The position numbers were made by a program, and so were the translations under genes. From contig CAZGEW010000002.1 of the NCBI GenBank assembly GCA_964524225.1, forward strand, positions 1 through 45,433: DNA of 45,433 nt, written 5' to 3'. Shown here piece after piece: positions 27,384-45,433 of the stretch. The notes below the pieces were generated by a model. The model was given only the letters and a program-made list of their open reading frames with translations, was not told the origin of the DNA and ran no database searches. The stretch's first letter is position 1. Every line of letters starts with the position of its first letter. This DNA is from an uncultured Methanosarcinales archaeon. Lineage in GTDB: Archaea > Nanobdellota > Nanobdellia > Woesearchaeales > GW2011-AR4.

Positions 27384-27411
27384 CTATCTTCTTCGTTGAT
27401 GACAATCAGTA

Positions 27412-28341
27412 TTATATAGTAAAGGTCAATTCTTTTATCCTCTTAACAACATCATTTATTAAATAATCTGGTGTAGAAGCTCCGGCACTAACTCCAATTT
27501 TTTCCTTTCCAATAAACCATTCTTTTTGTAATTGTTCTTCTGATTGTATAAAATAGCTTTCTACTCCTAATTCTTTGCATTTTGCATAAAGCTCTTTTGA
27601 GTTGCTTGAGTTTTTGCCTCCAATGACAATCACGATATTAGATTCTTTCGCTAATTCCTCTGTATCAAATTGTCTTTGCTTTGTCGGATTGCATATGGTA
27701 TCAACATAGCCATATTTTTTTGTCAAGTCCTTCATACTTAGAGGAATCTCTTCAAACTTTGCATCAATTAATTTGGAGTTTACATCATCAATAAGTTTCT
27801 TAAATCCATAAACTGACATTGTTGTTTGTGCAATAATTGCTACCTTCTTAAAACTATTTTTATTTATGTAATCAACAACTAAATCTGATTGCTCTGGGCT
27901 TTCCGCAATAAAAGTTTCATTACCTTTTATGTAGTAGCTTGTACCTATGGCCTCTGGATGATTCTTCTTACCAAAAATTATTACCTCGTAACCATTCTTT
28001 TTTAGCTTTATAGCTACATTATGTACTAATGTAACAAGTGGGCATGTTGCATCATTTAGGTTTTTCCCTTTGACAATGGATTTTTTCTCAAGAATTTCAT
28101 AAGTAGTCCCAGGTTCACCATGGGCTCTTAAAATAGTAACAGCATTTTGTGGAATATTATTGATACCGTTAACAAAAACAACTCCTTTATCTTGAAGATT
28201 TTTTATTACCTTTTCATTATGCACAAGCTGGCCTAGAACATAAGTTTTTCCTTTGTTATTTAATGCAACTTCTTCTGCAATTTCAATTGCCTTTTTTACA
28301 CCAAAGCAGAATCCTGCATGCTTTGCAACTTTAATGTCCAT
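27412..28341 (-). CDS. ispH: 4-hydroxy-3-methylbut-2-enyl diphosphate reductase
   Basis: Three Fe-S cysteine contexts: AKHAGFCFGVKKAIE, DATCPLVTLVH and VDTICNPTKQRQ. Confidence 0.85.
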   Translation of the reverse strand: MDIKVAKHAGFCFGVKKAIEIAEEVALNNKGKTYVLGQLVHNEKVIKNLQDKGVVFVNGINNIPQNAVTILRAHGEPGTTYEILEKKSIVKGKNLNDATCPLVTLVHNVAIKLKKNGYEVIIFGKKNHPEAIGTSYYIKGNETFIAESPEQSDLVVDYINKNSFKKVAIIAQTTMSVYGFKKLIDDVNSKLIDAKFEEIPLSMKDLTKKYGYVDTICNPTKQRQFDTEELAKESNIVIVIGGKNSSNSKELYAKCKELGVESYFIQSEEQLQKEWFIGKEKIGVSAGASTPDYLINDVVKRIKELTFTI

Positions 28342-28368
28342 TTTTTTAGTTTGTTATACATAATTAAC

Positions 28369-28824
28369 TTATTCTCTGTCTAGCTCATGCGACTTAACAA
28401 TTGATTCATAAACTTCAATCATATCCTTTAACCAATCCCCTCTCTCAAATATTGACTTCCACTCAGGGTGAGAGTTATATTTTTTATATACCCATTCTAA
28501 TCCTTCTAGATTTGATAGAGGGAACATTCCATTAGAAATCTCTATACTATCAAATGATTTAGGATTGTAAGTTAATTTGGCAATTCCTCTTAAGTCAAAA
28601 TTCTTCACTAAATCGTCAATATGTACATCACCAAATACGGCAAATGTATTTTTAGGAAAGTTTGCATATCTAAATTGAAGAGTATGACTCATCTCATAAC
28701 GTGGTGGTAGCACGGATTTTGGAGTAACTAGAATTCTCTGGCCTGCATAAATCAGGACAGTCTCTGCCATTTTGTAAACTTGTTCTTCACTAATAGTTTT
28801 AATTGTCAAACTTGAAGTTTCCAT
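28369..28824 (-). CDS. hypothetical protein embedded between ispE and ispH
   Basis: 151-aa ORF on the same strand as the MEP genes. No family recognised. Confidence 0.5.
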   Translation of the reverse strand: METSSLTIKTISEEQVYKMAETVLIYAGQRILVTPKSVLPPRYEMSHTLQFRYANFPKNTFAVFGDVHIDDLVKNFDLRGIAKLTYNPKSFDSIEISNGMFPLSNLEGLEWVYKKYNSHPEWKSIFERGDWLKDMIEVYESIVKSHELDRE

Positions 28825-28999
28825 TTTTTTATTTTTTTATTGAAAATTTGACATTCACTTCTTCTGTAGTTGCTTCCTTTTGGGTTTCATTTTGCTGTTC
28901 AGTTGCTTGTTGGTTTATTTGTTCTACCTTTTGCTCAGGATTTTCTTTTTGCTCCTGTTTTTGTTTTTCTTCTTTTTCTTTTAATTTTAATTTCCGATT

Positions 29000-29848
29000 T
29001 TAAATAGTTTTTGTCAAGAAAACAAATGGGTAGTCATATTGCATCTTGAAAAATGCCTCTCTTGCCTCGTAAATGCTGTTGAATATACCAAAAACAGTTG
29101 GGCCTGAGCCTGAAACACATGCATTCAATGCATCATTTTTCAATAAATTATTCTCTATTTCATCTATGATTTTATATTTTTTAATAACAATAGGTTCAAA
29201 ATCATTATGCAAATTATTTGCTATGGCTTTAATATCTTTTTTTTCTAAAGCCTTGATAAGACTATTTATTTCCGATTTAGTCCTTACTCTCGATTTTTGT
29301 TTGTCAAATGCAGAGTAAGCCCACTTAGTAGAAATCCTAAAGCCAGGGTTTATAAGTACAATGTTAATGCTAAATGATTTCTTGACTCTTTTTATTTTTT
29401 CTCCTATGCCTCCAACTAATGCTACATTTTCACCTATAAAAAAGGGGGCATCAGAGCCTATTTGGGAAGCTATGTCAATAAGTTGCTTTTCTTTTAGCCT
29501 TAATCCCCATAGTTTGTTTAAGTTCAGCAACACTGTAGTTGCATTACTGCTTCCACCTCCTAAGCCAGCCTCAATTGGAATATTTTTTTCAATATAAATC
29601 CTAACTCCGTACTTTAATTTATATTTAGTTTTTAGTAACAAAGCAGCTTTATATGCAAGATTATTTTCATTTTCAAGCTCTTTGTTTGTACACTCCACAA
29701 TTATCCTATCATCACTTATAGGCTCAATTGTTATGGTATCGCTTAAGTCTATTTTTTGCATTACAGATTGTATGTTATGGTAACCTGAGCTTAGTTTTTT
29801 GCCTATTTTAAGATAAAGGTTTACTTTGGCGTAAGAGTTAAAAGGCAT
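29000..29848 (-). CDS. ispE: 4-diphosphocytidyl-2-C-methyl-D-erythritol kinase
   Basis: AKVNLYLKIGKK...GYHNIQSVMQKIDLSD and the GHMP motif PIEAGLGGGSSNATTVLL. Confidence 0.8.
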   Translation of the reverse strand: MPFNSYAKVNLYLKIGKKLSSGYHNIQSVMQKIDLSDTITIEPISDDRIIVECTNKELENENNLAYKAALLLKTKYKLKYGVRIYIEKNIPIEAGLGGGSSNATTVLLNLNKLWGLRLKEKQLIDIASQIGSDAPFFIGENVALVGGIGEKIKRVKKSFSINIVLINPGFRISTKWAYSAFDKQKSRVRTKSEINSLIKALEKKDIKAIANNLHNDFEPIVIKKYKIIDEIENNLLKNDALNACVSGSGPTVFGIFNSIYEAREAFFKMQYDYPFVFLTKTI

Positions 29849-30008
29849 ATTTAACTTGGAATTTTAATGATTTATTAAATTTATGTATAATTTTTTAACT
29901 ACTTGATAGAAACAAAAGATTTTTATAATAGGGTAGGTTAATACTATTTACTCAAGAATAACTTAGATTGAGCTTTGCAATGGGTACACAAATTCCAAGT
30001 AATGATAA

Positions 30009-30302
30009 ACTGAAAAACAAATAAGTATAGAAGTTGATCGTAGGGGAAGCATAGTCATTATTGGTTCTACTGACAAGATTGAAGGGTTTGAAGAGAATGA
30101 CAATTTACGTTACATTATTTCAAATGGGAGAGATTTTTTAAAAGGAGCAGTTGTAGGCCCTCATCCATTTCATATTGTTGGTGAACTGACAAGTTGTGTA
30201 GTGGATAATATTGAAAAAGCACTTGAGCAAATGGGCTATAATGGAGCTCTAACACTACCTCCTTGGAGAATTTACAAGAAAGAGGATAACTATCATTCTT
30301 AA
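30009..30302 (+). pseudogene. ~97-codon open frame without ATG start (possible gene remnant)
   Basis: Hand reading finds the frame open from about 30009 to a TAA at 30300-30302 (..RGSIVIIGSTDKIEGFEENDNLRYIISNGRDFLKGAVVGPHPFHIVGELTSCVVDNIEKALEQMGYNG..). There is no in-frame ATG near the 5' end. A 14-codon ATG ORF (29980-30024) lies just upstream in another frame. Confidence 0.25.
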
Positions 30303-31513
30303 ACCAAAGTTACAACAACAAAGCATTGCATTCCTTTAGCTTGTCCAAAAGATGTCAGGTTTTCTCCTGTTGTATAGGTAATCCCTATATTTTCTTTGTC
30401 TAACCCTAATATTTTTGAAAGTGATTGTATTATCTCCTCTGAATAAATTTCTAGTTTTGGTTTAATTGCTTCGATTGTAATTGATATATTGTTTAGTCGA
30501 TAATTCTTTTGCTTCATTTTATTTAAAATAACTTTTAAATATTCTTTACTGTTTGTCACACCTTTTTTGCACATCTCGTCTGAGTAGTGCCCTAATGACT
30601 TATCTCCAATAGCAGAGCTTATTGCATTGAATAATGCATGCAAAATAATATCTCCATCAGAGTTTGCTTCTAATCCAATTTCATTAGTTATTACATAGCC
30701 ACCTAAAATTAATTTTTTATTTTTGTTGATTGAAAATCTATGGCTATCGTGACCAATTCCGATTCGAAAAAATTTTTTTTTGCTTTTTATTCTTTTCATC
30801 AAAATCCCTTCTGCAATGCTTAAATCATCTTGTGTTGTTATTTTTATATTTTCGTAAGAGCACTCAATAATTTTCACTTTTTTGCCTAGCGCCTCAACTA
30901 AAGAGACATCGTCACTAAATCTCAATTTTTTCTTTTTTGCATTCTTAAAAGCTTCAACAAATAAGCCATATTTAATAGCTTGAGGAGTTTGAACTTGATA
31001 AACATTAGTTCTATCCATTGTTTTTTCAACAAAACAATCTCTTATCCTTTTAATTGTATCCTTTAAGCGAAATCCGGCAACTGCAGCACCATATTTTTTT
31101 GCTGCATTAATGCATTCAATTATTTCAGTTTCTTTAACTAATGGGTTGCTACCATTATGCACAACAATAATGTCCTTGCTTTTTGCATTTTTTATTGACA
31201 TTAAACCATTATAAACAGAGTCTTGCCTTTCTTTACCACCATTAATAACATACTTTATTTTATCAAATGCAAAAAAATTTTTGTGTGGCATGCAAGGCGA
31301 GCTCGTATCGCCTCGCTCGCCAAGTACCTCAAAAATTTTTTTGAAATATTCTTTTTGTGTTACAACAACAATCTCGTCAATTAACTTACAATCTTGAAAA
31401 GTTTTTATTGTGTAATAAATGATTGGATTATTTAATAATGGAAGAAATACTTTATTAATATTTACTTTCATTCTTTTGCTTTTGCCAGCGGCTAAGATAA
31501 TTGCGAAGTTCAT
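30299..31513 (-). CDS. ispDF: bifunctional IspD/IspF (MEP cytidylyltransferase / MEcPP synthase)
   Basis: N-terminal IILAAGKSKRM...GGKERQDSV (IspD) and C-terminal RIGIGHDSHRF...SDGDIILHAL (IspF). Confidence 0.85.
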   Translation of the reverse strand: MNFAIILAAGKSKRMKVNINKVFLPLLNNPIIYYTIKTFQDCKLIDEIVVVTQKEYFKKIFEVLGERGDTSSPCMPHKNFFAFDKIKYVINGGKERQDSVYNGLMSIKNAKSKDIIVVHNGSNPLVKETEIIECINAAKKYGAAVAGFRLKDTIKRIRDCFVEKTMDRTNVYQVQTPQAIKYGLFVEAFKNAKKKKLRFSDDVSLVEALGKKVKIIECSYENIKITTQDDLSIAEGILMKRIKSKKKFFRIGIGHDSHRFSINKNKKLILGGYVITNEIGLEANSDGDIILHALFNAISSAIGDKSLGHYSDEMCKKGVTNSKEYLKVILNKMKQKNYRLNNISITIEAIKPKLEIYSEEIIQSLSKILGLDKENIGITYTTGENLTSFGQAKGMQCFVVVTLV

Positions 31514-31524
31514 TTTTTAGAAAT

Positions 31525-33219
31525 TTAATAATTAATATGCAATTTGTTTAAAATTCTAATAGAATCTATTTTCTCTTGGCTTCTTACAACTGCCTCTTCT
31601 ATGAAAAATTTAGTTGCAAATTTTAATGCATCTTTTGTAATTTCAATATACTCATCATTTTTTGCTGAGAAATAACTAACTAAAGACATTGCAGAAGCAA
31701 GTTGTAATGCTCTTCGTTCTAACCTAGCACTAAAAGGTATAAATTGGAACTTTTCTTGAATTTCTTTAATTATAAAATCTCTCGCTTTTTCTATTTCTTG
31801 ATAAAGTTCTTCTGTAAGCAAAACATTTTTTTGAGGAAACTTGTCTTTTAATAATTCGTGTCTTGTAAGAATAGCATAAACTAAAGTTACATGGTCTCTA
31901 ATTTTAGTAGCATACTCCATTCTTATTTTCCCTAGCGCTAATTTTTTCTGGCTTTGGACAATTTCATTAAACCTTTCCTTTGTCATTTTATGCAAACTAC
32001 ATAACATTCTATCTTCAATAGCATTAAAATTTGGGTCGGATATAGTTACTTTGTATCCTTGCTCCAAAGTCTTTGTATTATAATTTGTTGCAAAAAACGA
32101 ATTGAACCTGTAAGGACCTACTACACCAGTCTTTGTTTCATATCTTATATCCCTTTGCTCCATAGCCAATTTTAATGGTTCAACCATACCTTTATACTTA
32201 AACCAGTCGTTAAACTCCGGTACAATAAAATTAAATCTTCTATTCTGATACGCCTCTCCTATACATATGAATCTTACAGGCGTTATTCCACCACAATATC
32301 TATTTCTTCCTGGCAGACCATGAGCTAAAACTCCTTTTCTTTTATCCCCTCTAATCATATCATCAACAGCAAATGTTTTCCCAGTACCAGGAGCACCAAA
32401 AAAAGCCAAATTAAAGCCCGTGGTCATAGCAACTGTACCTTCTGGATTGAAGACAGTAGTGTCAGATAAAGAATACTGGTGCGTTATACCCAAAACACTA
32501 TCAAAATAAAGAATATGTCCAAACATTTTTTTAATATAATCAGCTATAAAATTTACTGTAAGTGATTTACCAAATTCTATAGTTTCATCAAGTCTTTCTT
32601 CTACAAGTTCTTTAAGATAATTTTCAAACTCATCATCCATTTTTTTGATTTCTTCTAATTCCTCTGCTGCTGCATCTGTGGTTACTGGAACTAGAGCTTT
32701 AGTTTTAATATATTCAGAATTTAGAATTTCCTTTACTAATGGTATAGTTTCTTCGTATAAGGAATAAGCGATTGTTCCATTTTTATCTATCTTTTCGATT
32801 ATATTATAACCGATTATCTTGTCTAAAGGATTTCTTACTTTTGGAAATCGAGCTTTTAAAACAGTAAAGTCAATAGGCAACTCATTTGTATTTGATTTTG
32901 CAACAAAGAATTCTAGAAGTTCTTTTACCATAACTCCTTGGTCGCTATATATACACTCAATAATATTTTTTTTGAATTTATTCCACGAACTGTCTATTGT
33001 AAGATTTCCATTTAGTACTGTATAATATCTTCCAAAAAAATTCTTATTTATATTTTTGCCGCTCTTTTCGAAAATATTTTTTGCACCTTCAAAAATCTCA
33101 ATCAAATCTTCCTCTGTTTTTATTTTAGATACTATCAGTTTGGTTTGTCCTATTTCATATCCAAAGAACTTCTTGAATATTAATTCAATTTCCTTTATCT
33201 TTTCATTGTCAAGAGTCAT
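31525..33219 (-). CDS. AAA+ ATPase of the MoxR/MCM/ChlI (helix-2-insert) type with ~260-aa N-terminal region
   Basis: Walker A FFGAPGTGKT (aa 273-282), Walker B-like FNFIVPEFND, LKLAMEQRDIRYETKTG (compare MCM AMEQQTISIAKAG and MoxR LEAMQE), sensor-1 FFATN, IEDRM (compare LLDRF). Its ATG directly abuts the stop of the methyltransferase gene. Confidence 0.6.
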   Translation of the reverse strand: MTLDNEKIKEIELIFKKFFGYEIGQTKLIVSKIKTEEDLIEIFEGAKNIFEKSGKNINKNFFGRYYTVLNGNLTIDSSWNKFKKNIIECIYSDQGVMVKELLEFFVAKSNTNELPIDFTVLKARFPKVRNPLDKIIGYNIIEKIDKNGTIAYSLYEETIPLVKEILNSEYIKTKALVPVTTDAAAEELEEIKKMDDEFENYLKELVEERLDETIEFGKSLTVNFIADYIKKMFGHILYFDSVLGITHQYSLSDTTVFNPEGTVAMTTGFNLAFFGAPGTGKTFAVDDMIRGDKRKGVLAHGLPGRNRYCGGITPVRFICIGEAYQNRRFNFIVPEFNDWFKYKGMVEPLKLAMEQRDIRYETKTGVVGPYRFNSFFATNYNTKTLEQGYKVTISDPNFNAIEDRMLCSLHKMTKERFNEIVQSQKKLALGKIRMEYATKIRDHVTLVYAILTRHELLKDKFPQKNVLLTEELYQEIEKARDFIIKEIQEKFQFIPFSARLERRALQLASAMSLVSYFSAKNDEYIEITKDALKFATKFFIEEAVVRSQEKIDSIRILNKLHINY

Positions 33220-35940
33220 CTAAACCACTTCTTTAGCTTTGTCTTCTATGTTTATCCCTTTTTTATTTTTTATATCTGAAAATAATAAATATTTTATTTT
33301 TTTATGTAGTTTGTCTTTTCTGTTTGCTAAAGAGCCAATTTTATTTATGGCTTCTTTTTCCCTAATATCTGGGATAACAATATAAGCAGGAATGTTTTGA
33401 TTTGGTGTTGCAGCAAATAAATTTCTAAACCTATTTATTCCGCTGTCTATTGTTGTGCTTTTCTCTATTTCAAAGGCTGCAACTATTGTGTCTCCTTTTA
33501 ACCATAACAAATCAATTTCTCTTATAATATCAAATGCCTGTCGATTTAGTCCATATTGCACATTATTACCCATAGGGGTGCTCATTTTTCTAAATTCAAC
33601 ATATTTTCTTTGTTCTGTTTGACCGATATGAGATGAGTATCCTTCATCGTCTCCTAAAGCTGCCAATTGTTTTATCATTAGGTCATGGAGTGATTCTTCT
33701 GTTGTGAGTTCTTCTCCTGTTAAAGTCTGCTGAGCAACCTTTGGCTTCTCTCTTTTTTCTACAAAATGCAAAAGTTGCTGTTGTGCTTGTGAGCCGAGTT
33801 CTTTAAGTTGCCAAGTTCTTTCGTCTTTCTTTTCTGCTATTCTATTGAGAACTTTAGAAATCTCTTCATATTCTGCAGCATTTCCATTTATTAAGTTAGT
33901 AAAAACTGCTTCAAGAACTTCATCCATAGTTGCTTGTTTCCTTTCATAAAGCAATGAACGTATTAGGTATTCAATTCTAGCTTCGACGGGAACATACTCT
34001 ATTGGCTTAACTTCGCCTTTTTCATCAATATTCTCTTTAAAATACCACTTTCCATTTTTTTCGACAAAATCTTTTTTTAAGAAGGGGGTAATATCCTTTT
34101 CTCCAAATCTATGTAGTAACCCATTATTTAATAAAAATGGAACTAACCTCATGTAAATTGTTGATAACTTAGCACCACCATGATATTCAATTGTTTCACC
34201 TGCAACTTTTCTTACTTTATTGCCAATTTCAACTTCTTCAATCATCTTTATTTCTGGTTTCTTTTCTGCTTTTTGGAAGGATAAGACGAAATCACCGAGC
34301 ATTGAACCAGTTCTTCGAGTTTGGATTGTATTAACATATTGTTGTATTGGTGGTTGATAAATCAACCCATCTTCTTCCGAGAGAATAAATCCTGCGTCAT
34401 GAGCTGCAAGGTGGATGGCATTCCATACAGCAAAATCTTTGTTATGGAAAGTCATTACCATCCATCTTCGTGGTTTAAGAACACGATAACATTCTTTGAA
34501 TATTTTGTATAGCAAATCTCGATACTCCCTAAGACTCCTTCCATGTTCTTTACTTACTACTGCTTCTTCTTTATCATCAATCATAGACTCTTTGTTGAGT
34601 ATGCCGCTAACCCATATCCAATAAAAATTGCTGAGTTCCGCGTATAATACATTATTTCCATAAGGAGGATCTGTTATTATAACATCTACAGATGCATCGA
34701 GTGCGGGAATTTTTGTTGAACTACCCATGTATGTAAAACACGAGGAATTTTGCAAATCTGCGAATTTCTTTGCAAAAGAACAATATGTACCAATTTCTTG
34801 ATTAGAATATTTTTTACCTCTACTAATCGCATTTTGTCTGTTCTCCCAAGCATCCCAAACATTAATCTCACAAAAAACCTCAGGTAACCAATAAACGCTA
34901 CTTGCCCATTCAATGGGTTTACCTCCTTGCCATCCGGGATTCCTGAATACTATTCTATTTGTAAATCTCAGAGAAGCGCTAAAGATGAAAGTTAAAAGTG
35001 ATTTTATATCTTCATTTACCTTAAGTTTTTTTATCTCTGTAGCTAATATTGTGTTGGCAAGAAGATTACGATTTGTGAACCATTCTGTAAAAGATTTAAT
35101 ATGAGCGTTGTAAGGTCTTCTTAGCTCCCACCAATCAGGCATCTTTGATTTGGGATACCATAAATTTTCTTTTTTGATTATTCCTAAAGCATTTTTACTA
35201 ATTTTAGATGCTAATTTTAAATCTTCTAGTTTTGGTTTAAAATTAATTTTATTTTTACATTTAGGACAGTCTAACTGAACCAAAATCAATTCTTCACCTA
35301 TCCTTTCACATTCGGAAGGTCTAAACTCTTCATTACATCCTTTATTGCAACATCTAAATTTCCCAGCTGACACGCCAGCAATTTTTTCACCTTTACCCAC
35401 TCTTTGAGCATCATTAAGTATAACTGGTTTTTTACAACCTTTGCATTTTACGACATTACTCCACTCGAACCAATTAGCTGGAACTTCTGATTTACATTTT
35501 GGGCAAGTAGTGAGATATAAAGAATCTATCTTAGGTTTACATTTCTCCTTGATTTTTAAAAGAATATCCTCAAAATTCTTGAGATCTGCATATAGGACTT
35601 CATTTTCCGTAATAAACGTCGCCATTGGATTCAGGTCAACACCAATCACTTTTCTTCTCAATCTTAAAGCTTCAACAACAGTAACACCACCTCCACAAAA
35701 AGGGTCAAGAATTATGCTTCCAGGATTAGAATAATGCCTAATCAATTCATTGAAAACAGAATAAGGTCTTCTTGCAAAATATCTGTGCATCTTGTAAATA
35801 GGAGTATGTGGTTTAGCAAGAGTTCCATGGTCAATAGGCTTTAAGTTATCTAAATCTTTAAGCCCTTCCTCTTTTATCTGTTTATTTATAAAATCTTCAG
35901 TAGTTTTTGGCTCGTCATTGTTTAGATTCATTTTCACCAA
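33220..35940 (-). CDS. Zn-ribbon DNA methyltransferase (DUF1156/COG1743-like architecture) with C-terminal restriction-endonuclease-like domain
   Basis: 906 aa. HRYFARRP, then motif I ILDPFCGGGVT (aa 77-87). Two Cys4 clusters (CPKC...CKGC at aa 146-169; CCNKGC...CPKC at aa 197-228). Motif IV IITDPPYG (aa 421-428). C-terminal IREID(810)LLWLKGDTIVAAFE(824)IEK(827)STTIDSGINRFRNL. Confidence 0.75.
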   Translation of the reverse strand: MVKMNLNNDEPKTTEDFINKQIKEEGLKDLDNLKPIDHGTLAKPHTPIYKMHRYFARRPYSVFNELIRHYSNPGSIILDPFCGGGVTVVEALRLRRKVIGVDLNPMATFITENEVLYADLKNFEDILLKIKEKCKPKIDSLYLTTCPKCKSEVPANWFEWSNVVKCKGCKKPVILNDAQRVGKGEKIAGVSAGKFRCCNKGCNEEFRPSECERIGEELILVQLDCPKCKNKINFKPKLEDLKLASKISKNALGIIKKENLWYPKSKMPDWWELRRPYNAHIKSFTEWFTNRNLLANTILATEIKKLKVNEDIKSLLTFIFSASLRFTNRIVFRNPGWQGGKPIEWASSVYWLPEVFCEINVWDAWENRQNAISRGKKYSNQEIGTYCSFAKKFADLQNSSCFTYMGSSTKIPALDASVDVIITDPPYGNNVLYAELSNFYWIWVSGILNKESMIDDKEEAVVSKEHGRSLREYRDLLYKIFKECYRVLKPRRWMVMTFHNKDFAVWNAIHLAAHDAGFILSEEDGLIYQPPIQQYVNTIQTRRTGSMLGDFVLSFQKAEKKPEIKMIEEVEIGNKVRKVAGETIEYHGGAKLSTIYMRLVPFLLNNGLLHRFGEKDITPFLKKDFVEKNGKWYFKENIDEKGEVKPIEYVPVEARIEYLIRSLLYERKQATMDEVLEAVFTNLINGNAAEYEEISKVLNRIAEKKDERTWQLKELGSQAQQQLLHFVEKREKPKVAQQTLTGEELTTEESLHDLMIKQLAALGDDEGYSSHIGQTEQRKYVEFRKMSTPMGNNVQYGLNRQAFDIIREIDLLWLKGDTIVAAFEIEKSTTIDSGINRFRNLFAATPNQNIPAYIVIPDIREKEAINKIGSLANRKDKLHKKIKYLLFSDIKNKKGINIEDKAKEVV

Positions 35941-36085
35941 CTTTTTGTAATACCTTTTGCATAAATAATTCCACTTGTTTTGATAGTATTATCCCTTTCT
36001 TATCACAATAGGCTTTGTATCTATTATAAATATCTTTTTCAATGCTTAGTGCAATAGTTTTCTTGACCAAATTTATCACCCTCAT
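35915..36085 (-). CDS. ribbon-helix-helix (CopG/Arc-like) protein, candidate controller of the downstream module
   Basis: MRVINLVKKTIALSIEKDIYNRYKAYCDKKGIILSKQVELFMQKVL shows a beta-alpha-alpha pattern. Start trimmed to Met12 because a TATA box overlaps the first 11 codons. The 3' end overlaps the methyltransferase start by 26 nt. Confidence 0.55.
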   Translation of the reverse strand: MRVINLVKKTIALSIEKDIYNRYKAYCDKKGIILSKQVELFMQKVLQKVGENESKQ

Positions 36086-36103
36086 ATAAGCATATATGAA
36101 CCT

Positions 36104-36122
36104 ATATATAAATATCACGTGA
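36104..36122 (-). promoter_or_regulatory. TATA box (TTTATATATA) plus adjacent 8-nt palindrome TCACGTGA upstream of the RHH gene
   Basis: The TATA element lies about 19-28 nt upstream of the ATG at 36085, which fits a leaderless archaeal mRNA. The palindrome sits at the BRE-proximal side and is a possible operator. Confidence 0.4.
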
Positions 36123-36206
36123 GCATGTCCAGTGCTTATTTACTATATTGAAAAGAATTATTATACTTAGTTCTATAAAATTATTATTCAATTCTTAACA
36201 ATCACA

Positions 36207-37367: not shown

Positions 37368-37549
37368 TTTTTAAATTTTAATAGTAAGCTTATTTTGTTT
37401 ATAAATTCTAATGCAAATATTATAGAAGATTTTGCATCCTCATTAGTAACAGGTTTTGCTTTTTCTAAAAGAGCTTTGGCTTCTTCGAAATCTGGTGTTT
37501 TTTTCTTTACATATCCGTTGTCCAGATAATTTTTAAATAAGTTTATCAT
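37364..37549 (-). pseudogene. truncated HEPN-like remnant (61 aa, no R-x4-6-H motif)
   Basis: Resembles only the N-terminal helix region of the intact HEPN at 508-993. The start overlaps the MNT stop by 1 nt. The stop overlaps the dxr ATG (ATGA). Confidence 0.4.
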
Positions 37550-38121
37550 TATATAATTTTCACGTAGCCATGCAGAACAATGCCATTAGCTATAGCATTT
37601 TTGAATTCATTTGAGCTTTTAGCGAGGGAAGGCAGAATATGAATATTAATCTTCCTATTTAGCTCTTTTTCAAATTCATTTGTAAAATTCCCTAAATTTT
37701 CCTGATTTTTTTGTGGAAATATTACAAGTACATCAATATCACTTTTTTCAATATCTTCGCCTTGGGCAAATGAGCCAAACAGCACAATTGCTTCTGGATT
37801 GTTGAATATTTCCACGAATTTGTCAACAAATAGGTACCTTTTTAATCTATATAGGTTAAATATAAGCTTGTAGAAGCGATAAGCTTCAGATTCAAGATTT
37901 GCTTTAATGTTGGTTGTTAATGGAGTTTCCTCTATTTTGATGACATCATATTTTTTGAGTTCTTTAATGGAGTCAATAATAGCTGTAGTTGAAAAACCTG
38001 TCTCTTTTTCAAGCATCCTTATATGGAATGTTTTATTTGGGTAATTAAATATAAGTTCTGCTACCTTAAATATGCTTTCTCTAAAAAATAATATCTTGTT
38101 CTTGTCTTTTTTTTGTGACAT
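37549..38121 (-). CDS. minimal nucleotidyltransferase (MNT) with N-terminal wHTH-like region
   Basis: IVLFGSFAQGEDIEKSDIDVLVIF. Same architecture as the MNT at 987-1535. Confidence 0.7.
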   Translation of the reverse strand: MSQKKDKNKILFFRESIFKVAELIFNYPNKTFHIRMLEKETGFSTTAIIDSIKELKKYDVIKIEETPLTTNIKANLESEAYRFYKLIFNLYRLKRYLFVDKFVEIFNNPEAIVLFGSFAQGEDIEKSDIDVLVIFPQKNQENLGNFTNEFEKELNRKINIHILPSLAKSSNEFKNAIANGIVLHGYVKII

Positions 38122-38313
38122 TTGTATTATATAAATAACAACTGTTATTTAAATGTTACGGTTTTAAATTGGAAAAATGGCTGACTTGTTTGACACTTTG
38201 GTTATTGAGCCGCTGAATAAAAGTAAGAAAATGGCTGTTATGAGGAGGGTTTAGACTTATTTTTGTGATTTGGTACATCTATACCAATTATGTATTTATT
38301 AATTTACGTATGT

Positions 38314-41300
38314 TTAATAACTTTGTTCTTGATTGCAAATCCAAGAAGATCCGATTTTTAAATCATAAATATCACCCAAATGAGATCTAGAATCCTCTTT
38401 TGTGCATAATAATTTTATTTGAAATTTATTATTCTTATGCTCTACCTTGGCAAATAATTTAAGCGTTGATTTATTAACAACGTCAGACATTTTCCAATAT
38501 ATTCTATATAACCCATCTTCACAAAATTCGTCATTAATCAAGGTATCAGGAGATGAAAGTGTTGTATCAGTACAATCTATTATCCAAGAGCCGTATCTCC
38601 CAAATTCTAAAGTCGTTTGATCATCTTGAAAAATAGAATATGTATTTCCTAATGGTGTTTTTATGAGCAATTCCCCAGATGTGGCTCCTGTCATAAGATG
38701 ACTCTTCGCATTGAATCTATCATTTAAGAATCCTCTTAATACATCATCATATTTTAATATATCTTCATTTTTACAAAAATAAAATGAGCCAGGAGAGTAT
38801 TCAACGCAGTGCCTTGTATCCAAACCTAATTTTAATGGTTCTTCAAAAAAGCTGATATATTTAAGTTTTTTTCCTGTTGTTTCTGGGATATACTTTGCTT
38901 TTCCATCAAAATAATTTGTCCAAATATAGGAGTTATCTGCTAATTCTGAATCAAAAATCTTAAGGTGATAGTGATAATAACATTCGTCACAATTATCTAA
39001 GTAAAAAAATTTCCCATTTCTTGGAGTATGTATCAATTCTGGATTTGCATCAGACCAATAATTTAATGGTGTATAAGAATTAATACCGAAGTACAGATTT
39101 TGATTAAAATAAGGAATTAGATTATCTGTAATTTTTATATATTGAGTTTTTAAATCTTCCTGACTAATATTTTTAATAAAATCTGTAAATGGATAATTAA
39201 TTGTTAGAGGAGTAACCATATAATTTTGAGTTGTATAATAATCTGAACCTATATCTCTCGCATGTGGAGAGAAATAGATCATATAATCGTTAAAGAATAA
39301 ATTATCTTCATTGTTTGAATATATACCAAAATCAACATACTTAAATGGACCAGTCCATGGATGAAAATAATATAATAAATTAGAATAGTAATCTTCTTTT
39401 TGAAGTATTTCGGTCATAAATCCGTAGACTTCAAGATTTTTTGAACTTGCTACATCAACTATATTTTGTTCAATATGTTGTGCTTTAGTTTCATCAAAAA
39501 TAATAAAGTTCATAGTATCGGTATCTATATGATCAATGAAATAATTAACATTTAACCGGTCATATGTCGGATAATATGCATTTTCAATTGATAACCCTAC
39601 TATATCAAACTTATTTTCCAATAAATATATAGTATAATTAAAATTATACTTATCTCCATACTCAAAAAATGAATACCTTGTAACTTCCCCATCTTCATTA
39701 ATAATCGTAAAATAATTATCATGATACCAATAACCTCGATTGCCTATTGGTCTAGTTCCAATAAAATTTATTTTAAATTCATTTAACTTAGAAAAGCCGA
39801 CAGGCAGATTAATTGATTGGGAATAAGTTTTAAGATCGCCACAATTTTCATAAATATCAATTTTAATATCCCCTGAATAATATCCATTAGACAAGTTATC
39901 CAGATTTAATTCTGATTTAAAGTTATAAGTAGAAATTTCCTTGTTTAAACATAGCTCGTTTTCTATTATTTTAAAAGTAAAAGATTCATCGGCTTCAATA
40001 TTATTAACATTTAAATCGCTCAAAATTACGCTAATGTCTTGTTTTAGATAATCATTGTTAATAATATCAAAAGTAAACTCTCTTGAACTATTTGAATGAT
40101 TAATTATACCTAGATTTAATATATGGGGTTTTATATATGCCTCTAAGGGTTTAATAATTCTTGAAGCGTTAACCCTTCCACCACCTTGTGTGAAGATATC
40201 ATAACCTAAATTAACTGCAGATTGTGTTAGTATTGATTTGATGTCTTCTGGAGCATATCCATAGGAATTAGCATCAATTAACAAAGCCGCAACACCACTA
40301 ATCATAGGTGTAGACATTGACGTTCCCCTTAATGTTAAATGTTCATCATCGAAGCAGTCAGCGTCATATTGAGAATAAGCATCAGCAGAGCAAATTGAAA
40401 CACCAGTTGCAGAAATGTCAGGTTTAATAATATTTTCTTGGTTAAATAATACTGGGCCTTTGCCACTAAAATAAGCTATACTATCTTCTTTATCCGTTGC
40501 ACCTACTGTAAATGCATTTCTCGCACAACCTGGGCAGTCAATATTACCATAGTCTGCACCTGACCAAAAATTTCCTGCTGCTACAACTACAAGACTTCCA
40601 ATATTATTTGCATTATCTACAGCAATAGACAATGGGTCATTTGGAGTTCCTGATCCACCGATACTCATGCTAATTATATCAGCTTTATCAGAAAAATCAC
40701 CATCACCATTAAGGTCTGTTGCTTTTTCAAGTGCTTTAATTATGTCTGAGTCATAGCCATAACCATCAGAATCTAAGATTTTATAAATTTGAAGACTTGC
40801 TCCCGGTGCAACACCTTTTAACTCTCCTTCAGAGGCCACTATACCTGCAACATGAGTTCCATGACCACGATCATCAAATGGGTCATTATCCAAATTTACA
40901 AAATCATAGCCATCTATTATCTTAGGGCAATTATCTAAATTAATACAAGAACCAAAGTCTTTATGTGAGTAGTCTATTCCTGTGTCAAGAATAGCTATCT
41001 TTACACCACTTCCGTTATATCCGTAAGACCATACTTGATTAGCTCCAATTAGTGGAACAGAATCCATTAATGAAGCATATTTAATCTTATCTCTATGAAT
41101 TTTAACATGTGGAAATCTGTCTTTGATTTCCTTTAGTGATCTGGAAGATGGATTTGATATAAAGATTCCATTTATTACATTTTTGACGGAACCCTTGTAA
41201 TGGTCTCCTACTAAACTTCTTATACTATTTTGGATTTTATCTATTTTTTCAATTTCTGACGATCTTTTAAATTGAGGTATGCTAATTAAGCCTTTCCCTA

Positions 41301-41577
41301 ACTCTATGATATACTTATCTTCTATTTTTTCTCTTCCTTTTTTCATTACAAAATTTAATTGATCTACCTCTTTTGAAGAGATTGAAAATTTTGCATGGGT
41401 AAGTTTTATCGATGATTTTTCTAAGATGTTAACTTCTTCCTCGATAGATATATTCTCTTTAAAATCAGGATTGATAAATATATCACCACTTGCTTTGCCA
41501 ACAGGATCATCTATAAGAGAACAACTTACTATAACAAGTACAAGTATAGAAATTAAAAATTGACTAAAATTTTTCAT
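38314..41577 (-). CDS. S8 subtilisin-like serine protease, large secreted/lipid-anchored form
   Basis: Catalytic triad contexts AILDTGIDYSHKDF, HGTHVAGIVAS and GTSMSTPMISGVAALL. N-terminal signal with a lipobox-like IVSC. About 600-aa C-terminal region of unknown fold. Confidence 0.9.
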   Translation of the reverse strand: MKNFSQFLISILVLVIVSCSLIDDPVGKASGDIFINPDFKENISIEEEVNILEKSSIKLTHAKFSISSKEVDQLNFVMKKGREKIEDKYIIELGKGLISIPQFKRSSEIEKIDKIQNSIRSLVGDHYKGSVKNVINGIFISNPSSRSLKEIKDRFPHVKIHRDKIKYASLMDSVPLIGANQVWSYGYNGSGVKIAILDTGIDYSHKDFGSCINLDNCPKIIDGYDFVNLDNDPFDDRGHGTHVAGIVASEGELKGVAPGASLQIYKILDSDGYGYDSDIIKALEKATDLNGDGDFSDKADIISMSIGGSGTPNDPLSIAVDNANNIGSLVVVAAGNFWSGADYGNIDCPGCARNAFTVGATDKEDSIAYFSGKGPVLFNQENIIKPDISATGVSICSADAYSQYDADCFDDEHLTLRGTSMSTPMISGVAALLIDANSYGYAPEDIKSILTQSAVNLGYDIFTQGGGRVNASRIIKPLEAYIKPHILNLGIINHSNSSREFTFDIINNDYLKQDISVILSDLNVNNIEADESFTFKIIENELCLNKEISTYNFKSELNLDNLSNGYYSGDIKIDIYENCGDLKTYSQSINLPVGFSKLNEFKINFIGTRPIGNRGYWYHDNYFTIINEDGEVTRYSFFEYGDKYNFNYTIYLLENKFDIVGLSIENAYYPTYDRLNVNYFIDHIDTDTMNFIIFDETKAQHIEQNIVDVASSKNLEVYGFMTEILQKEDYYSNLLYYFHPWTGPFKYVDFGIYSNNEDNLFFNDYMIYFSPHARDIGSDYYTTQNYMVTPLTINYPFTDFIKNISQEDLKTQYIKITDNLIPYFNQNLYFGINSYTPLNYWSDANPELIHTPRNGKFFYLDNCDECYYHYHLKIFDSELADNSYIWTNYFDGKAKYIPETTGKKLKYISFFEEPLKLGLDTRHCVEYSPGSFYFCKNEDILKYDDVLRGFLNDRFNAKSHLMTGATSGELLIKTPLGNTYSIFQDDQTTLEFGRYGSWIIDCTDTTLSSPDTLINDEFCEDGLYRIYWKMSDVVNKSTLKLFAKVEHKNNKFQIKLLCTKEDSRSHLGDIYDLKIGSSWICNQEQSY

Positions 41578-41578
41578 T

Positions 41579-41959
41579 TTAATTTTGTTTGTAAATGTCT
41601 AGTATTTCTTTTTCTAGTAAAATTAAATCATATTTCTGGGTTTTTACTTTTGTTATTAAATGACTAAATTCTGATAGTTCTATTCCAACAGAATCTAAAC
41701 CCAACAGATTAGCTCCAATAAGCGTTGTTCCAGAACCAAGAAACGGGTCTAAAATCATCTGACCTAGTCTAAAATATTTATTTAGAAACACTTCCACTAA
41801 TTGAGGAATGAACTTGCCTAAATAAGGATGTAGTCTATGTACATGTTTAGTTCTTTGCCATTCTGGAACATCTACAAAAGATAAATCATTCTCAAAAAGT
41901 TTAATATTCTTTTCTTTCCAGCTAGATTCTTCTTTTGGTATTGTCATTAATTGAGTCAT
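41579..41959 (-). pseudogene. truncated DNA methyltransferase (AdoMet-binding N-terminal module only)
   Basis: 126 aa. HRLHPYLGKFIPQLV...ILDPFLGSGTTLIGANLLGLDSVGIEL parallels aa 50-110 of the 906-aa methyltransferase, but there is no DPPY motif. The stop is 1 nt from the protease ATG. Confidence 0.55.
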
Positions 41960-42058
41960 GTGTATTATTTATTTTAAAGACTTTATAATTCTTACTAAAC
42001 CTCGACCGTCCATTAAGGTAATGCGTCCAAGGCTATTGAATATAACATAATTTGATTT

Positions 42059-43114
42059 CTAATTTCCATTCGCCATCTCATTTATCTCCTTCAAAAGAAC
42101 TTCCATAATTTCATTATCATTAATTCTTCTTACAATTTTGCCGTCTTTGTATAACAAATGATTTCCAGGAGCGCCAACAATTCCAATATCTGCTTTTCTG
42201 CTTTCTCCAGGACCGTTTACACCACAACCCATAACAGCTACTTTAATCGGTTTCTTTATTTTTTCAGTTGCATTTTCTAATTGCTCTACCATTTTGATTA
42301 CATCAACCTCTGTTCTTGCACATGTTGGACAGCTTGTTACTTGAACTCCTTCATTTCTTAAGCTAAGCGCCCTTAATATATACTTACCAATTTTAACTTC
42401 CTCTTTTGGGTCATCAGAAAGTGAAACCCTTATTGTGTCACCTATGCCTTCGGCTAGCAACATTCCAATTCCCATTGCTGATTTAACAGTTCCTGGAATC
42501 TTAGAGCCAGCTTCTGTTACGCCAAGATGCAATGGATAATCTGTTTTCTCAGCAAATAATCTATAAGCTTTTACCATTCGAGGCACATCAGATGCTTTTA
42601 ATGAAACTATTATATCGTAAAAATCTTGCTCTTCCAAAATTTTTATATGGCGCATTGCACTTTCGACCATTGCTTCTGGAGCATACCCATACTTTTCAAA
42701 CAAATCCCTTTCAAGAGAACCGAGGTTAACACCAATTCTCATTGGCACTCCGTAGTTCTTGCATACATTAACAACCTGCTGCACCTTATCAGGATTGCCT
42801 ATATTTCCTGGGTTTATTCTTAACTTATCAACGTACTTTACAGCTTCCAAAGCAATCCTGTAGTCAAAATGAATATCTACAACAAGAGGTATGTTAATGT
42901 TTTCTTTGATCTCTTTCATAGCTTTAGCTGCTTCCATTGTAGGAGCAGAAACTCTGACAATATCACAACCAACCTCTTCTAAACCATGAATCTGCTTAAC
43001 AGTTGCTTCTACATCGGTTGTGTCTGTTGTAGTCATCGATTGAGCAGTTATAGGTGCATCTCCACCAATGTACAATTTTCCAACTTTTACTTTGCGAGAT
43101 TTTCTTCTTTGCAT
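42059..43114 (-). CDS. ispG: 4-hydroxy-3-methylbut-2-en-1-yl diphosphate synthase
   Basis: IGGDAPITAQSMTTTDT, RINPGNIG, SCPTCARTEVD and MGCGVNGPGE. Confidence 0.9.
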   Translation of the reverse strand: MQRRKSRKVKVGKLYIGGDAPITAQSMTTTDTTDVEATVKQIHGLEEVGCDIVRVSAPTMEAAKAMKEIKENINIPLVVDIHFDYRIALEAVKYVDKLRINPGNIGNPDKVQQVVNVCKNYGVPMRIGVNLGSLERDLFEKYGYAPEAMVESAMRHIKILEEQDFYDIIVSLKASDVPRMVKAYRLFAEKTDYPLHLGVTEAGSKIPGTVKSAMGIGMLLAEGIGDTIRVSLSDDPKEEVKIGKYILRALSLRNEGVQVTSCPTCARTEVDVIKMVEQLENATEKIKKPIKVAVMGCGVNGPGESRKADIGIVGAPGNHLLYKDGKIVRRINDNEIMEVLLKEINEMANGN

Positions 43115-43190
43115 TTTAAAAAATTGTTAGGTTTTTATACATATCAATTTTCGAAAGATTTAAATTTAGGAATTGCATTGAGATATTAAA

Positions 43191-43496
43191 ATGAAAGTGC
43201 TGTTTATTTGCAATCAAAACGAGAATAGAAGTAAGACAGCTGAAGAAGTATTCAAAGGCAAATTTGAAACTAAGTCTGCTGGACTTTACAATACTAAACC
43301 AGTTACTGAAAAACAACTTTCTTGGGCCGATGTGATAGTTGTTATGGAAGAAGCACAAAGAGCTGAAATAGCTAAACGTTTTCCTAAACACTACATGCAG
43401 AAACGCATCCTTTCCCTCGATATTCCTGATATTTACCATTACAATCAGCTTGAATTAATTAATACTTTAAAGTCTAGAGTCGATAAATTATTTTAG
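43191..43496 (+). CDS. small low-molecular-weight phosphatase-like protein
   Basis: 101 aa. N-terminal CNQNENRS (a C-x5-R-S P-loop) and LDIPD. Shorter than typical LMW-PTP/ArsC. Confidence 0.5.
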   Translation: MKVLFICNQNENRSKTAEEVFKGKFETKSAGLYNTKPVTEKQLSWADVIVVMEEAQRAEIAKRFPKHYMQKRILSLDIPDIYHYNQLELINTLKSRVDKLF

Positions 43497-43594
43497 CCAC
43501 TCATCAAATTGCTTCTTTGCTTTCTTCTTGTATTGTCATTTTAAGTTTTTATTAATATTGAATTTATTTTTAAAAATAAAATATAAAAAAATAA

Positions 43595-45433
43595 TTATCT
43601 TTTCTCTAACATTTCACTTATAATTCTCTTAATACTCTCTTTATCAATGCCAGCTAATTTTTTCTGTATGTCCGGCTTGCCATGCTCAATAAACTTATCA
43701 GGGATACCTATCCTCTTTACATTAGCCTTAACTCCATTATCTTCCAATAGTTCTAATACAGCAGAACCAAAGCCACCATTAACAGTGCCTTCTTCTAACG
43801 TTATAATATTTTTTATTTTTTTTGCATACTTTAAAATTAATTCTTCGTCTAGTGGCTTAACAAATCTTGCATTGATGACAGTTGCATTGCACTTAAGCTC
43901 CTCCATTGCGTGAATTGCGTCATACAAAATTGGACCAACTCCAAGAATCAATAAGTCTTTTCCTTTCTTTAGTACCTCTCCTTTGCCAATTTCAAGTTTC
44001 TTAAATTCTGAGTCAAGCCCAACTCCTATGCCACTTCCTCTTGGATACCTCAATGAAACAGGCCCCTTCATTAAAGTGGCAGTATAAAGCATATGCTGCA
44101 ATTCATTCTCATCCTTTGGCACCATAATTGTTACATTTGGGATAGCTCTAAAATATGCGATATCAAAAGGTCCATTATGTGTAGGCCCGTCATCTCCTAC
44201 TAATCCAGCTCTGTCTAATGCAAAAATAACACCAAGATTTTGCAGGCAAACATCATGAATGATTTGATCGTATGCACGCTGCAAGAATGTTGAGTAAATT
44301 GCACATACTGGTTTGATTCCAGAAATCGCTAATCCTCCTGCAAATGTAACAGCATGCTGCTCTGCAATTCCAACATCAATTGTTCTGTCTGGAAAATGTT
44401 TTTCAAATTTACTCAACCCTGTCCCAGCTTTCATTGCTGCTGTTATTACAATAATTTTTTTATCTTCTTCTGCAATCCTTATCAAGGCATTTGCAAATGC
44501 ATCAGTATAAGTTATATTTGTAGTTGTTACAAATTTTTGTCCATTTACAGGGTCAAATGGTGACATTCCATGAAATTTATCCATATCTTTTTCAGCAAAC
44601 GCATAGCCCCTCCCTTTCTCTGTTTTGACATGCAGCAAAACAGGACCTGTAAGATGCTTTATATTCTGCAATGCTGGTATAAGCTCGTCAAAGTTGTGAC
44701 CATCTATAGGCCCAAAATACTGAAAGCCAAGACTCTCAAAGAAAACACCTTCACTTGCAATATTCCTTAATCTTTCTTGCATCCAAAAAAATTTGTCAAC
44801 CTCTTCTGGGCCAATTCCTGGTACTTTGTCTAATAGTTTTCTAGTACCTTTTCTTAACCTGAAGTAGCTCGGATGCAGAACTATTTTATTGAGGTAATTA
44901 GATATAGCACCTACATTAGGGGATATACTCATTCTGTTATCATTTAAAATAATAAGCATGTCTGTTTTTGAGGCACCTGCATTATTTAAGCCTTCAAAAG
45001 CTAAGCCTGCTGTTAAAGCTCCATCTCCAACGATAACAACAACTTTATAATCTTCATTATTGTAATCTCTTGCTTTTGCAATGCCTAATGCTGCTGATAT
45101 TGCAGTAGAAGCATGCCCTGCTCCAAAAACATCATATTTTGATTCTTCGATATTACAAAAACCGCATACACCCTTGTATTGCCTTAGGGTATGGAAATTA
45201 TTCCTTCTTCCTGTGACAAGCTTATGAGAATAACTTTGATGACCTGTATCAATCACAATTTTATCTCTAGGTGCGTCATAAACATAATGCACAGCTAACG
45301 TTAATTCTACTGCCCCAAAAGGACCACCTAAATGACCACCATTCTTAGAAACAACTTCTAAAATCTTTTCTCTAATCTCATGAGCAAGCACTTTAAGTTG
45401 CTCTTTACTTAGTTGTTTAAGGTCTTTGGGTGA
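43595..45433 (-). CDS. dxs: 1-deoxy-D-xylulose-5-phosphate synthase (5' end beyond window)
   Basis: GGHLGGPFGAVELTLAVHYVYDAPRDKIVIDTGHQSYSHKLVTGRR and the GDGALTAG ThDP motif. The frame stays open for the 14 codons upstream of the track's start (SPKDLKQLSKEQLK), matching the conserved Dxs N-terminus, so the true start is at or beyond the window edge. Confidence 0.95.
   Translation of the reverse strand, partial: SPKDLKQLSKEQLKVLAHEIREKILEVVSKNGGHLGGPFGAVELTLAVHYVYDAPRDKIVIDTGHQSYSHKLVTGRRNNFHTLRQYKGVCGFCNIEESKYDVFGAGHASTAISAALGIAKARDYNNEDYKVVVIVGDGALTAGLAFEGLNNAGASKTDMLIILNDNRMSISPNVGAISNYLNKIVLHPSYFRLRKGTRKLLDKVPGIGPEEVDKFFWMQERLRNIASEGVFFESLGFQYFGPIDGHNFDELIPALQNIKHLTGPVLLHVKTEKGRGYAFAEKDMDKFHGMSPFDPVNGQKFVTTTNITYTDAFANALIRIAEEDKKIIVITAAMKAGTGLSKFEKHFPDRTIDVGIAEQHAVTFAGGLAISGIKPVCAIYSTFLQRAYDQIIHDVCLQNLGVIFALDRAGLVGDDGPTHNGPFDIAYFRAIPNVTIMVPKDENELQHMLYTATLMKGPVSLRYPRGSGIGVGLDSEFKKLEIGKGEVLKKGKDLLILGVGPILYDAIHAMEELKCNATVINARFVKPLDEELILKYAKKIKNIITLEEGTVNGGFGSAVLELLEDNGVKANVKRIGIPDKFIEHGKPDIQKKLAGIDKESIKRIISEMLEKR

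Follow-up and report, generated by a model that had tools for sequence, protein, structure and literature searches.

A bacterial-type MEP isoprenoid gene cluster with inserted defence-type genes on a contig of Candidatus Woesearchaeota

Isoprenoids are the building material of archaeal membranes; according to textbooks, their precursors are made by the mevalonate route in archaea and by the 2-C-methyl-D-erythritol 4-phosphate (MEP) route in bacteria and plastids. The window analysed here, the whole 45,433 nt of contig CAZGEW010000002.1 (assembly GCA_964524225.1, deposited as an uncultured Methanosarcinales archaeon), contains six minus-strand genes within 18.0 kb (positions 27412–45433), dxs, ispG, dxr, a fused ispDF, ispE and ispH, that encode all seven activities of the MEP pathway. 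Genes were called with the equivalog models of NCBIfam/TIGRFAM at their curated cut-offs and domains were assigned with Pfam, with E-values from 1e-17 to 1e-152 over the MEP genes. All seven activities passed their equivalog cut-offs and the Pfam domains were complete. The product of dxs (43595–45433), 1-deoxy-D-xylulose-5-phosphate (DXP) synthase, has DXP_synthase_N and transketolase domains and scored 821 bits against TIGR00204 (cut-off 466); its gene is truncated at the 5′ end. The gene ispG (gcpE; 42059–43114), for 4-hydroxy-3-methylbut-2-enyl diphosphate (HMBPP) synthase, matched GcpE (PF04551) at 7e-152 and scored 450 bits against TIGR00612 (cut-off 280) and 503 against NF001540 (cut-off 345). 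DXP reductoisomerase, encoded by dxr (36207–37367), has three DXP-reductoisomerase domains and scores of 523 for TIGR00243 (cut-off 316) and 564 for NF009114 (cut-off 461). The fused ispDF (30299–31513), encoding MEP cytidylyltransferase and 2-C-methyl-D-erythritol 2,4-cyclodiphosphate (MEcPP) synthase, has IspD and YgbB domains and scored 206 for TIGR00453 (cut-off 181) and 145 for TIGR00151 (cut-off 116). The kinase of 4-diphosphocytidyl-2-C-methyl-D-erythritol (CDP-ME) is encoded by ispE (29000–29848; GHMP kinase domains; TIGR00154, 254 bits against a cut-off of 139), and HMBPP reductase by ispH (lytB; 27412–28341; LytB domain; TIGR00216, 265 bits against 188). The initial annotation, made from the sequence by eye and translation, had placed seven MEP activities on one strand within about 18 kb, and all six genes were indeed found there at equivalog level.

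Residues of the active sites and metal centres were conserved in each protein. Alignment with structures in the PDB showed that IspH retains three cluster cysteines and, in the motifs VHN, AHG, NHPE, AQTT and NSSNS, its His, Glu, Thr and Ser-Asn residues for the substrate, matching the enzymes of E. coli and Aquifex, and that the [4Fe-4S] ligands of IspG (CPTC...GC..GE, three cysteines and a glutamate) align with those of Aquifex 3noy. Dxr has DSEH, LEVIEAH (the metal site) and HPxWxMG..NKG, with 6mh4 as its best PDB match (3e-132). In IspDF, alignment and translation revealed the P-loop-like GxGxR..K of IspD and the DSH...H zinc ligands of IspF, while IspE keeps the lysine of AKvNL, the glycine-rich loop GLGGGSSNA and the aspartate of SD(A)P. 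The thiamine diphosphate motif GDG...NDN of Dxs, together with GHQSY and AEQHA, is conserved relative to 7bzx and 2o1s. The reading frame of dxs continues to the last base, 45433, where it reads SPKDLKQLSKEQLK, and its product aligns from about 20 residues into the Dxs proteins of relatives, which indicates that the gene is cut by the contig end. The set had been described as complete and intact. This is correct for five genes, which are full-length and keep their catalytic and cluster residues, but not for dxs as it stands on this contig.

The host of these genes is archaeal. The left part of the contig carries a block in the classical archaeal order ftsZ–secE–spt5–rpl11 (1591–4391, minus strand), with all four genes above cut-off (TIGR00065, TIGR00327, TIGR00405 and NF002232) and with a secE (3019–3231) of the Sec61-gamma type of eukaryotes and archaea. 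Archaeal CMP kinase (TIGR02173) and archaeal-type phosphoglucose/phosphomannose isomerase (PGI/PMI) likewise exceeded their curated cut-offs, and an archaeal-type A24 peptidase is encoded. Apart from the peptidase, these markers had been named in the initial annotation, and they hold at equivalog level for ftsZ, secE, spt5, rpl11, CMP kinase and PGI/PMI. Two others hold less firmly: a protein described as Dph6-like scored below the Dph6 cut-off, for which that wording is apt, and a supposed RibL could be placed at superfamily level, as a member of the cytidylyl/adenylyltransferase family. An Rfam scan of the window found no rRNA gene.

The archaeal and MEP parts of the contig could not be told apart by composition. 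Tetranucleotide frequencies of the two halves correlated at r=0.99, with a GC content of 31.8 % in one and 31.6 % in the other; every pair of 5-kb chunks gave r≥0.89 and the MEP genes correlated with the archaeal half at r=0.97. The junction also recurs elsewhere. Contig JACPMO010000009.1 of assembly GCA_016185905.1 (Ca. Woesearchaeota; locus L046) is 99.3–100 % identical to positions 20153–31408 of the window and has the same order, ispDF–ispE–orf151–ispH–GT2–CARDB–Lrp–ACT, where GT2 is a family 2 glycosyltransferase. Because this assembly was deposited separately and has indels of its own, the join between the bacterial-type and archaeal genes is not chimeric.

Relatives of both parts of the contig belong to one archaeal lineage. 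IspG was scanned against 185,579 GTDB species genomes (one genome per species, in a pattern-limited search). The 26 closest loci, at 66–92 % identity, were all in metagenome-assembled genomes (MAGs) of Woesearchaeota/Nanoarchaeia, whereas bacterial IspG in the same scan reached only 47–55 %. Ten of these 26 loci lie in records titled 'uncultured Methanosarcinales' (among them the TPA records of L003, L012, L013, L016, L017, L022, L023, L025 and L026), titles that are probably automatic taxonomic mislabels. The best 120 homologues of Dxr were Woesearchaeota or Nanoarchaeota wherever named, and proteins of Ca. Woesearchaeota (MBI26469xx/MBI2647079) are members of the 90 %-identity clusters of both FtsZ and IspDF/IspH. 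The nearest relatives of genes on the archaeal side (FtsZ) and on the MEP side (IspDF/IspH) are both named Woesearchaeota. When IspH was compared with 1.84 billion cluster representatives, Woesearchaeota contributed, fragments apart, one full-length representative (P0141, 70 % identical). The nearest protein beyond that cluster was 46 % identical, and its gene has neighbours of archaeal type on its contig; the remaining matches were at most 45 % identical and mostly unnamed, the only named one being from Omnitrophota (42 %). No bacterial donor of IspH could be assigned among these representatives.

The order dxs–ispG–dxr–ispDF–ispE–ispH is common to about 20 species of Woesearchaeota, on contigs of up to 234 kb. 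At no fewer than 13 loci the dxs end is divergent from an archaeal rpl1–rpl10(P0) operon, mostly with rpl12 and, further out, RpoE′/Rpb7, and at about 12 loci the ispH end is convergent with archaeal rps15 (S15). Downstream of ispH in the window are the GT2 and CARDB genes and a tRNA gene instead of S15. Since the ribosomal-protein flanks of the relatives are lacking, the downstream flank of the cluster has been rearranged; the upstream flank lies beyond the contig end. Pairwise comparison of all six genes with those of four relatives gave dN/dS values of 0.03–0.14 with saturated dS, indicating long vertical inheritance under purifying selection. The nearest sampled bacterial homologues are no more than 55 % identical, which indicates that the acquisition is old. 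Among 18 sampled bacterial loci, no MEP gene other than dxr was found within 10 kb of ispG. A divergent lineage has a different arrangement: at locus L045 (ENA ERZ23495671 scaffold_1098, 4908–9065), which encodes the IspH of 46 % identity, ispG, ispDF, ispE and ispH are contiguous and lie between deoxyhypusine synthase and RNase P p30 genes on a contig that also encodes Sec61-beta and NAC. No dxs or dxr was present within the 10.8 kb examined there.

This contig stands out by the defence-type genes and the subtilase gene that have been inserted into its MEP cluster. The cluster spans 18 kb compared with about 8–12 kb in relatives, the difference arising from co-oriented insertions, and two insertion blocks inside it total about 9 kb. 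Where relatives have a complete cluster, the distance between dxr and ispDF is mostly 17–40 bp, though it reaches about 0.9 kb in a few of them; their ispG–dxr spacer ranges from 5 bp to 3 kb. The dxr–ispDF gap of the window holds a gene for a 906-aa PglX-like, type II N6-adenine DNA methyltransferase (33220–35940, minus strand; PF01555; PADLOC PglX, 2e-63). Abutting it is a 564-aa ORF (31525–33219, minus strand) with no match in Pfam, NCBIfam or PADLOC, which ends 11 nt before ispDF and is presumed to encode the partner of the methyltransferase. Together the pair (31525–35940) may form an uncharacterized restriction-like or BREX-like two-gene module. The sibling contig JACPMO010000009.1 breaks off within ispDF; the end that this insertion has in the window is about 120 bp away. 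Between ispG and dxr lies a gene for a 1087-aa subtilase (peptidase S8; 38314–41577, minus strand; PF00082, 9e-57), which is absent from the same gap in all related clusters. The inserted genes all point the same way as the MEP genes and lie close together, with 0–11 nt at three junctions. This suggests that dxr and ispDF are probably co-transcribed with them.

The remaining genes of the cluster are small and several appear to be remnants. Next to the subtilase gene is a 126-aa type II DNA methyltransferase fragment (41579–41959, minus strand; PADLOC MTase_II PDLC03249, 2e-36), probably a remnant, which matches only positions 74–197 of the 541 in the profile. The ispG–dxr spacer also contains a toxin–antitoxin-like MNT/HEPN pair (37364–38121, minus strand), of which a counterpart exists at locus L001 (11844–12850). 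Its 190-aa minimal nucleotidyltransferase (MNT; antitoxin-type; 37549–38121; PF18765/PF01909; PADLOC PDC-M05A) is intact and 84 % identical to the copy in the same gap of L001. An in-frame deletion has taken about 82 internal codons out of the HEPN gene (37364–37549, minus strand), so that residues 1–32 and 31–57 of its 61-aa product correspond to residues 2–33 and 115–141 of the 145-aa HEPN protein of L001. An ORF of 107 aa (43116–43439, minus strand), 1 nt upstream of ispG, had no Pfam, NCBIfam or PADLOC match and no homologue in the clusters of relatives; another of 151 aa (28369–28824, minus strand), between ispE and ispH, likewise had no match in these databases and is present in the sibling L046. 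In the ispDF–ispE spacer, a 91-codon open frame on the plus strand (30027–30302) lacks an ATG, GTG or TTG start and shows 31–35 % identity to an ORF that runs on the opposite strand of this spacer in L007 and L016; it is probably a gene remnant. This spacer is occupied in L001 and L008 by a TRM13-like methyltransferase gene instead.

Two archaeal-type tRNA genes, each with more than one intron, lie on the archaeal side and count as further evidence for an archaeal host. They had been spotted by eye, and both were called by ARAGORN once their non-canonical introns had been cut out by hand. The first (25365–25595, plus strand) has three introns, in the D-loop, the anticodon loop (14 nt) and the T-loop, and was recovered after removal of the two non-canonical ones. 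ARAGORN reads its anticodon as CTA, for which the ambiguous position of the intron was given as the reason; to judge from the resemblance of its body, it is most likely tRNA-Glu(CUC). It ends 1.8 kb from ispH, as the initial annotation had noted, and is preceded by a TTTTATATAA box (−34 to −25). The second, tRNA-Pro(GGG) (22847–22996, minus strand), has a canonical intron of 49 nt and another, of about 26 nt, in the T-loop, the latter removed before the call. No tRNA was found in the unmodified sequence by ARAGORN (default or -i) or by Rfam (gathering threshold, E≤1), and relaxed ARAGORN calls on that sequence, with introns up to kilobases long, were rejected as spurious. That tRNA genes of DPANN archaea can be highly disrupted, and that prediction programs fail on such genes, is on record (PMC5829648).

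Other features of the left part of the contig are noted here. The L11 protein (1591–2382, minus strand) has a C-terminal extension of about 120 aa, Lys/Glu-rich and coiled-coil-like at first and then passing into an acidic tail, rich in Ala and Pro, that recalls stalk proteins. On this contig rpl11 is followed by HEPN/MNT genes and not by rpl1, which in relatives adjoins dxs as part of rpl1–rpl10–rpl12; a complete HEPN–MNT(HTH) pair lies at 508–1535, in addition to the module inside the MEP cluster. An SMC/Rad50-like ATPase (6730–8796, plus strand) has a LmuB-like PADLOC match (4e-34), and a stand-alone Cas4-like nuclease is encoded at 11895–12518 (minus strand); no CRISPR array or cas operon was found in the window.

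It is highly probable that the window is a contig of Ca. Woesearchaeota (DPANN; Nanoarchaeota in GTDB) with the MEP cluster characteristic of its clade, a cluster of ancient bacterial origin that has subsequently passed down by vertical inheritance under purifying selection. The suggestion that a full, syntenic and apparently functional bacterial-type MEP set lies on a truly archaeal contig is supported. The reactions of the route from Dxs to IspH are established enzymology of these families, and the enzymes are predicted to be active. Dxs would convert pyruvate and glyceraldehyde 3-phosphate to DXP, and Dxr would convert DXP to MEP. The fused IspDF and IspE would carry MEP through CDP-ME and its 2-phosphate (CDP-MEP) to MEcPP. 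Of the two [4Fe-4S] enzymes, IspG would form HMBPP from MEcPP and IspH would form isopentenyl diphosphate (IPP) and dimethylallyl diphosphate (DMAPP) from HMBPP. IspH yields both of these products, and isopentenyl diphosphate isomerase is not needed. The route may be the only source of IPP in the cell. After its transfer from bacteria, the cluster would have been passed on within the woesearchaeal clade and, in this genome, stretched by insertions.

Several observations weigh against this interpretation. On this contig dxs lacks about 20 codons and its promoter, the other five MEP genes being full-length. Unrelated genes interrupt the cluster, and as ispDF starts only 11 nt after the 564-aa ORF its expression would depend on read-through or an internal promoter. 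A scan of the cluster for sigma-70 promoters and terminators gave 97 sites, which does not differ from the 86.6±11 of shuffled sequence, a result that is uninformative on archaeal promoters. Pfam scans of the window found no ferredoxin, flavodoxin or other electron donor for IspG and IspH, no prenyltransferase and no lipid synthase. In addition, geranylgeranylglyceryl phosphate synthase (GGGPS) and digeranylgeranylglyceryl phosphate synthase (DGGGPS) are reported to be absent from such genomes (Huang et al. 2021, PMC8421398). Finally, ispH of the 99.8 %-identical sibling GCA_016185905.1 has a frameshifting deletion of 32 nt (L046 3454–3466, corresponding to window positions ~27854–27885) that splits the gene into ORFs of 151 and 135 aa. 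The deletion may be genuine and abolish function, or it may be an error of assembly; if genuine, the MEP pathway is dispensable in at least one strain.

A more far-reaching reading, tentative and rather unlikely, is that the order of the cluster was not taken over en bloc from a bacterium but assembled inside the DPANN lineage from different bacterial sources, and that the cluster is now a plastic locus, de novo synthesis of IPP being conditionally dispensable to an episymbiont. Assembly within DPANN is suggested by the 18 bacterial loci, at which only dxr accompanied ispG, by the different sub-cluster ispG–ispDF–ispE–ispH in the divergent archaeal lineage of L045, and by trees in which dxr and ispG are nearest to Firmicutes and ispD/F to the candidate phyla radiation (CPR) (Huang et al. 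2021, PMC8421398). Plasticity and dispensability are suggested by the insertion of defence genes and by the frameshifted ispH of one sibling assembly. A separate reading is that of a decaying relic, a cluster broken up by insertions and no longer needed by an episymbiont that takes lipids or isoprenoids from its host. The two insertion blocks of about 9 kb would fit such decay, as would the neighbouring remnants (the HEPN gene with its internal deletion, the methyltransferase fragment and the startless ORF), the 32-nt deletion in the sibling and the reported absence of GGGPS and DGGGPS (Huang et al. 2021, PMC8421398). However, the decayed elements of the window are all non-MEP genes, the six MEP genes are full-length except for the contig-end cut in dxs, every catalytic residue that was checked is kept, and dN/dS is 0.03–0.14 against four relatives. 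The deletion in the sibling may be an assembly error in a low-coverage MAG. Decay of the pathway is therefore improbable.

Two further explanations are less probable still. As the PglX-like methyltransferase and MNT/HEPN genes are interleaved with the MEP genes, one might suspect that a mobile or defence island brought the cluster in recently, by horizontal transfer from a co-occurring bacterium. But the nearest sampled bacterial homologues are at most 55 % (IspG) and 45 % (IspH) identical compared with 66–92 % among Woesearchaeota, composition is fully ameliorated, gene order is conserved and dS is saturated between woesearchaeal species, and Pfam scans turned up no integrase, transposase or flanking repeats; such a transfer is hardly credible. 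The other is that a bacterial MEP fragment was misjoined to an archaeal one near 27.3 kb during assembly or binning. The MEP enzymes are of bacterial type, and the flank after ispH (GT2, CARDB, tRNA) is unlike the S15 flank of most relatives, as a misjoin would predict. This explanation is effectively refuted by the uniform composition (r≥0.89 between 5-kb chunks and 0.99 between halves) and by the recurrence of the junction ispH–GT2–CARDB–Lrp–ACT, at 99–100 % identity and with separate indels, in another deposited assembly. About 20 species of Woesearchaeota have the same cluster, mostly among archaeal ribosomal-protein genes on contigs of up to 234 kb, and the MNT/HEPN module inside the cluster is shared by the window and L001. 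A bacterial host was rejected, the markers on the contig being archaeal at equivalog level.

A long-standing cluster in Woesearchaeota also agrees with what has been published. The initial annotation mentioned, with caution, earlier sightings of MEP genes in some DPANN bins; this was correct, such reports having appeared since 2018, and is decisive for novelty. As cited in later work (PMC8204110, PMC8421398), Castelle & Banfield 2018 were the first to report Woesearchaeota with a bacterial MEP pathway, for which they proposed an origin in Firmicutes. Hoshino & Gaucher 2018 found that a few DPANN carry MEP enzymes and attributed these to horizontal gene transfer (PMC6107057). Castelle et al. 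2021 (PMC8204110) then reported that the pathway is widespread, with its genes together at one locus, among 52 Woesearchaeota genomes that form a monophyletic clade; in some of these a UbiA prenyltransferase lies near the MEP cluster. According to Huang et al. 2021 (PMC8421398), the MEP pathway, present in subgroups F and J, is the only one in Woesearchaeota and a mevalonate pathway is absent; they also describe a fused ispD/F and per-gene trees in which Firmicutes come closest to dxr and ispG, and Ca. Nealsonbacteria to ispD/F. The finding is thus already known, and both per-gene phylogenies and searches for mevalonate and lipid genes have been published for this clade. An archaeal clade that replaces or supplements its precursor route with a bacterial one bears on the 'lipid divide', on the exchange of core metabolism across domains and on the lipid supply of DPANN symbionts. 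That significance belongs to the published discovery, and the contig is one more well-supported example that opens no new question. It adds a verified junction between archaeal and MEP genes, insertions into the cluster, a truncated dxs and a possible ispH-defective sibling strain.

Among other systems for precursor synthesis, the mevalonate pathways, the canonical route of archaea, lead to the same end products, IPP and DMAPP, through enzymes that are not homologous; no mevalonate-pathway gene was found in Pfam scans of the window. The MEP pathways of E. coli, Bacillus and Aquifex have the same chemistry, to judge from profile matches and from the conserved catalytic residues and Fe-S, zinc and thiamine diphosphate ligands. 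They differ in that the host here is archaeal, the genes form one co-oriented cluster and identity to the sampled enzymes is only ~40–58 %. Of the solved structures, 6mh4, 5ddt and 4mwa, which are proteins of Firmicutes, gave Dxr, IspD and IspG their best score or their highest score density, in keeping with the published affinity of dxr and ispG. The IspDF of Campylobacter jejuni and alphaproteobacteria (1w55, 8xhu) is the same fusion, with IspD N-terminal and IspF C-terminal. The IspD half of the woesearchaeal protein scored 153 bits against the stand-alone 5ddt, presumably the IspD of Bacillus subtilis, and 108 bits against the fused 1w55 and 8xhu. With ispD/F placed nearest Ca. Nealsonbacteria in published trees, this suggests that the woesearchaeal fusion may have arisen separately from the proteobacterial one. 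The closest likeness is to the published clusters of Woesearchaeota (PMC8204110, PMC8421398), with which the window shares the six genes, their co-location and the ispD/F fusion. Woesearchaeal MAGs from the same groundwater and Rifle datasets show 66–92 % protein identity to it. With 99–100 % nucleotide identity to GCA_016185905.1, the window matches almost exactly a genome of one of the published groundwater datasets. Some genomes of Castelle et al. 2021 have a UbiA prenyltransferase or a bacterial glycerol-3-phosphate dehydrogenase nearby, which the window lacks. Relative to the published clusters, that of the window is expanded to 18 kb and is followed by GT2, CARDB and tRNA genes in place of S15.

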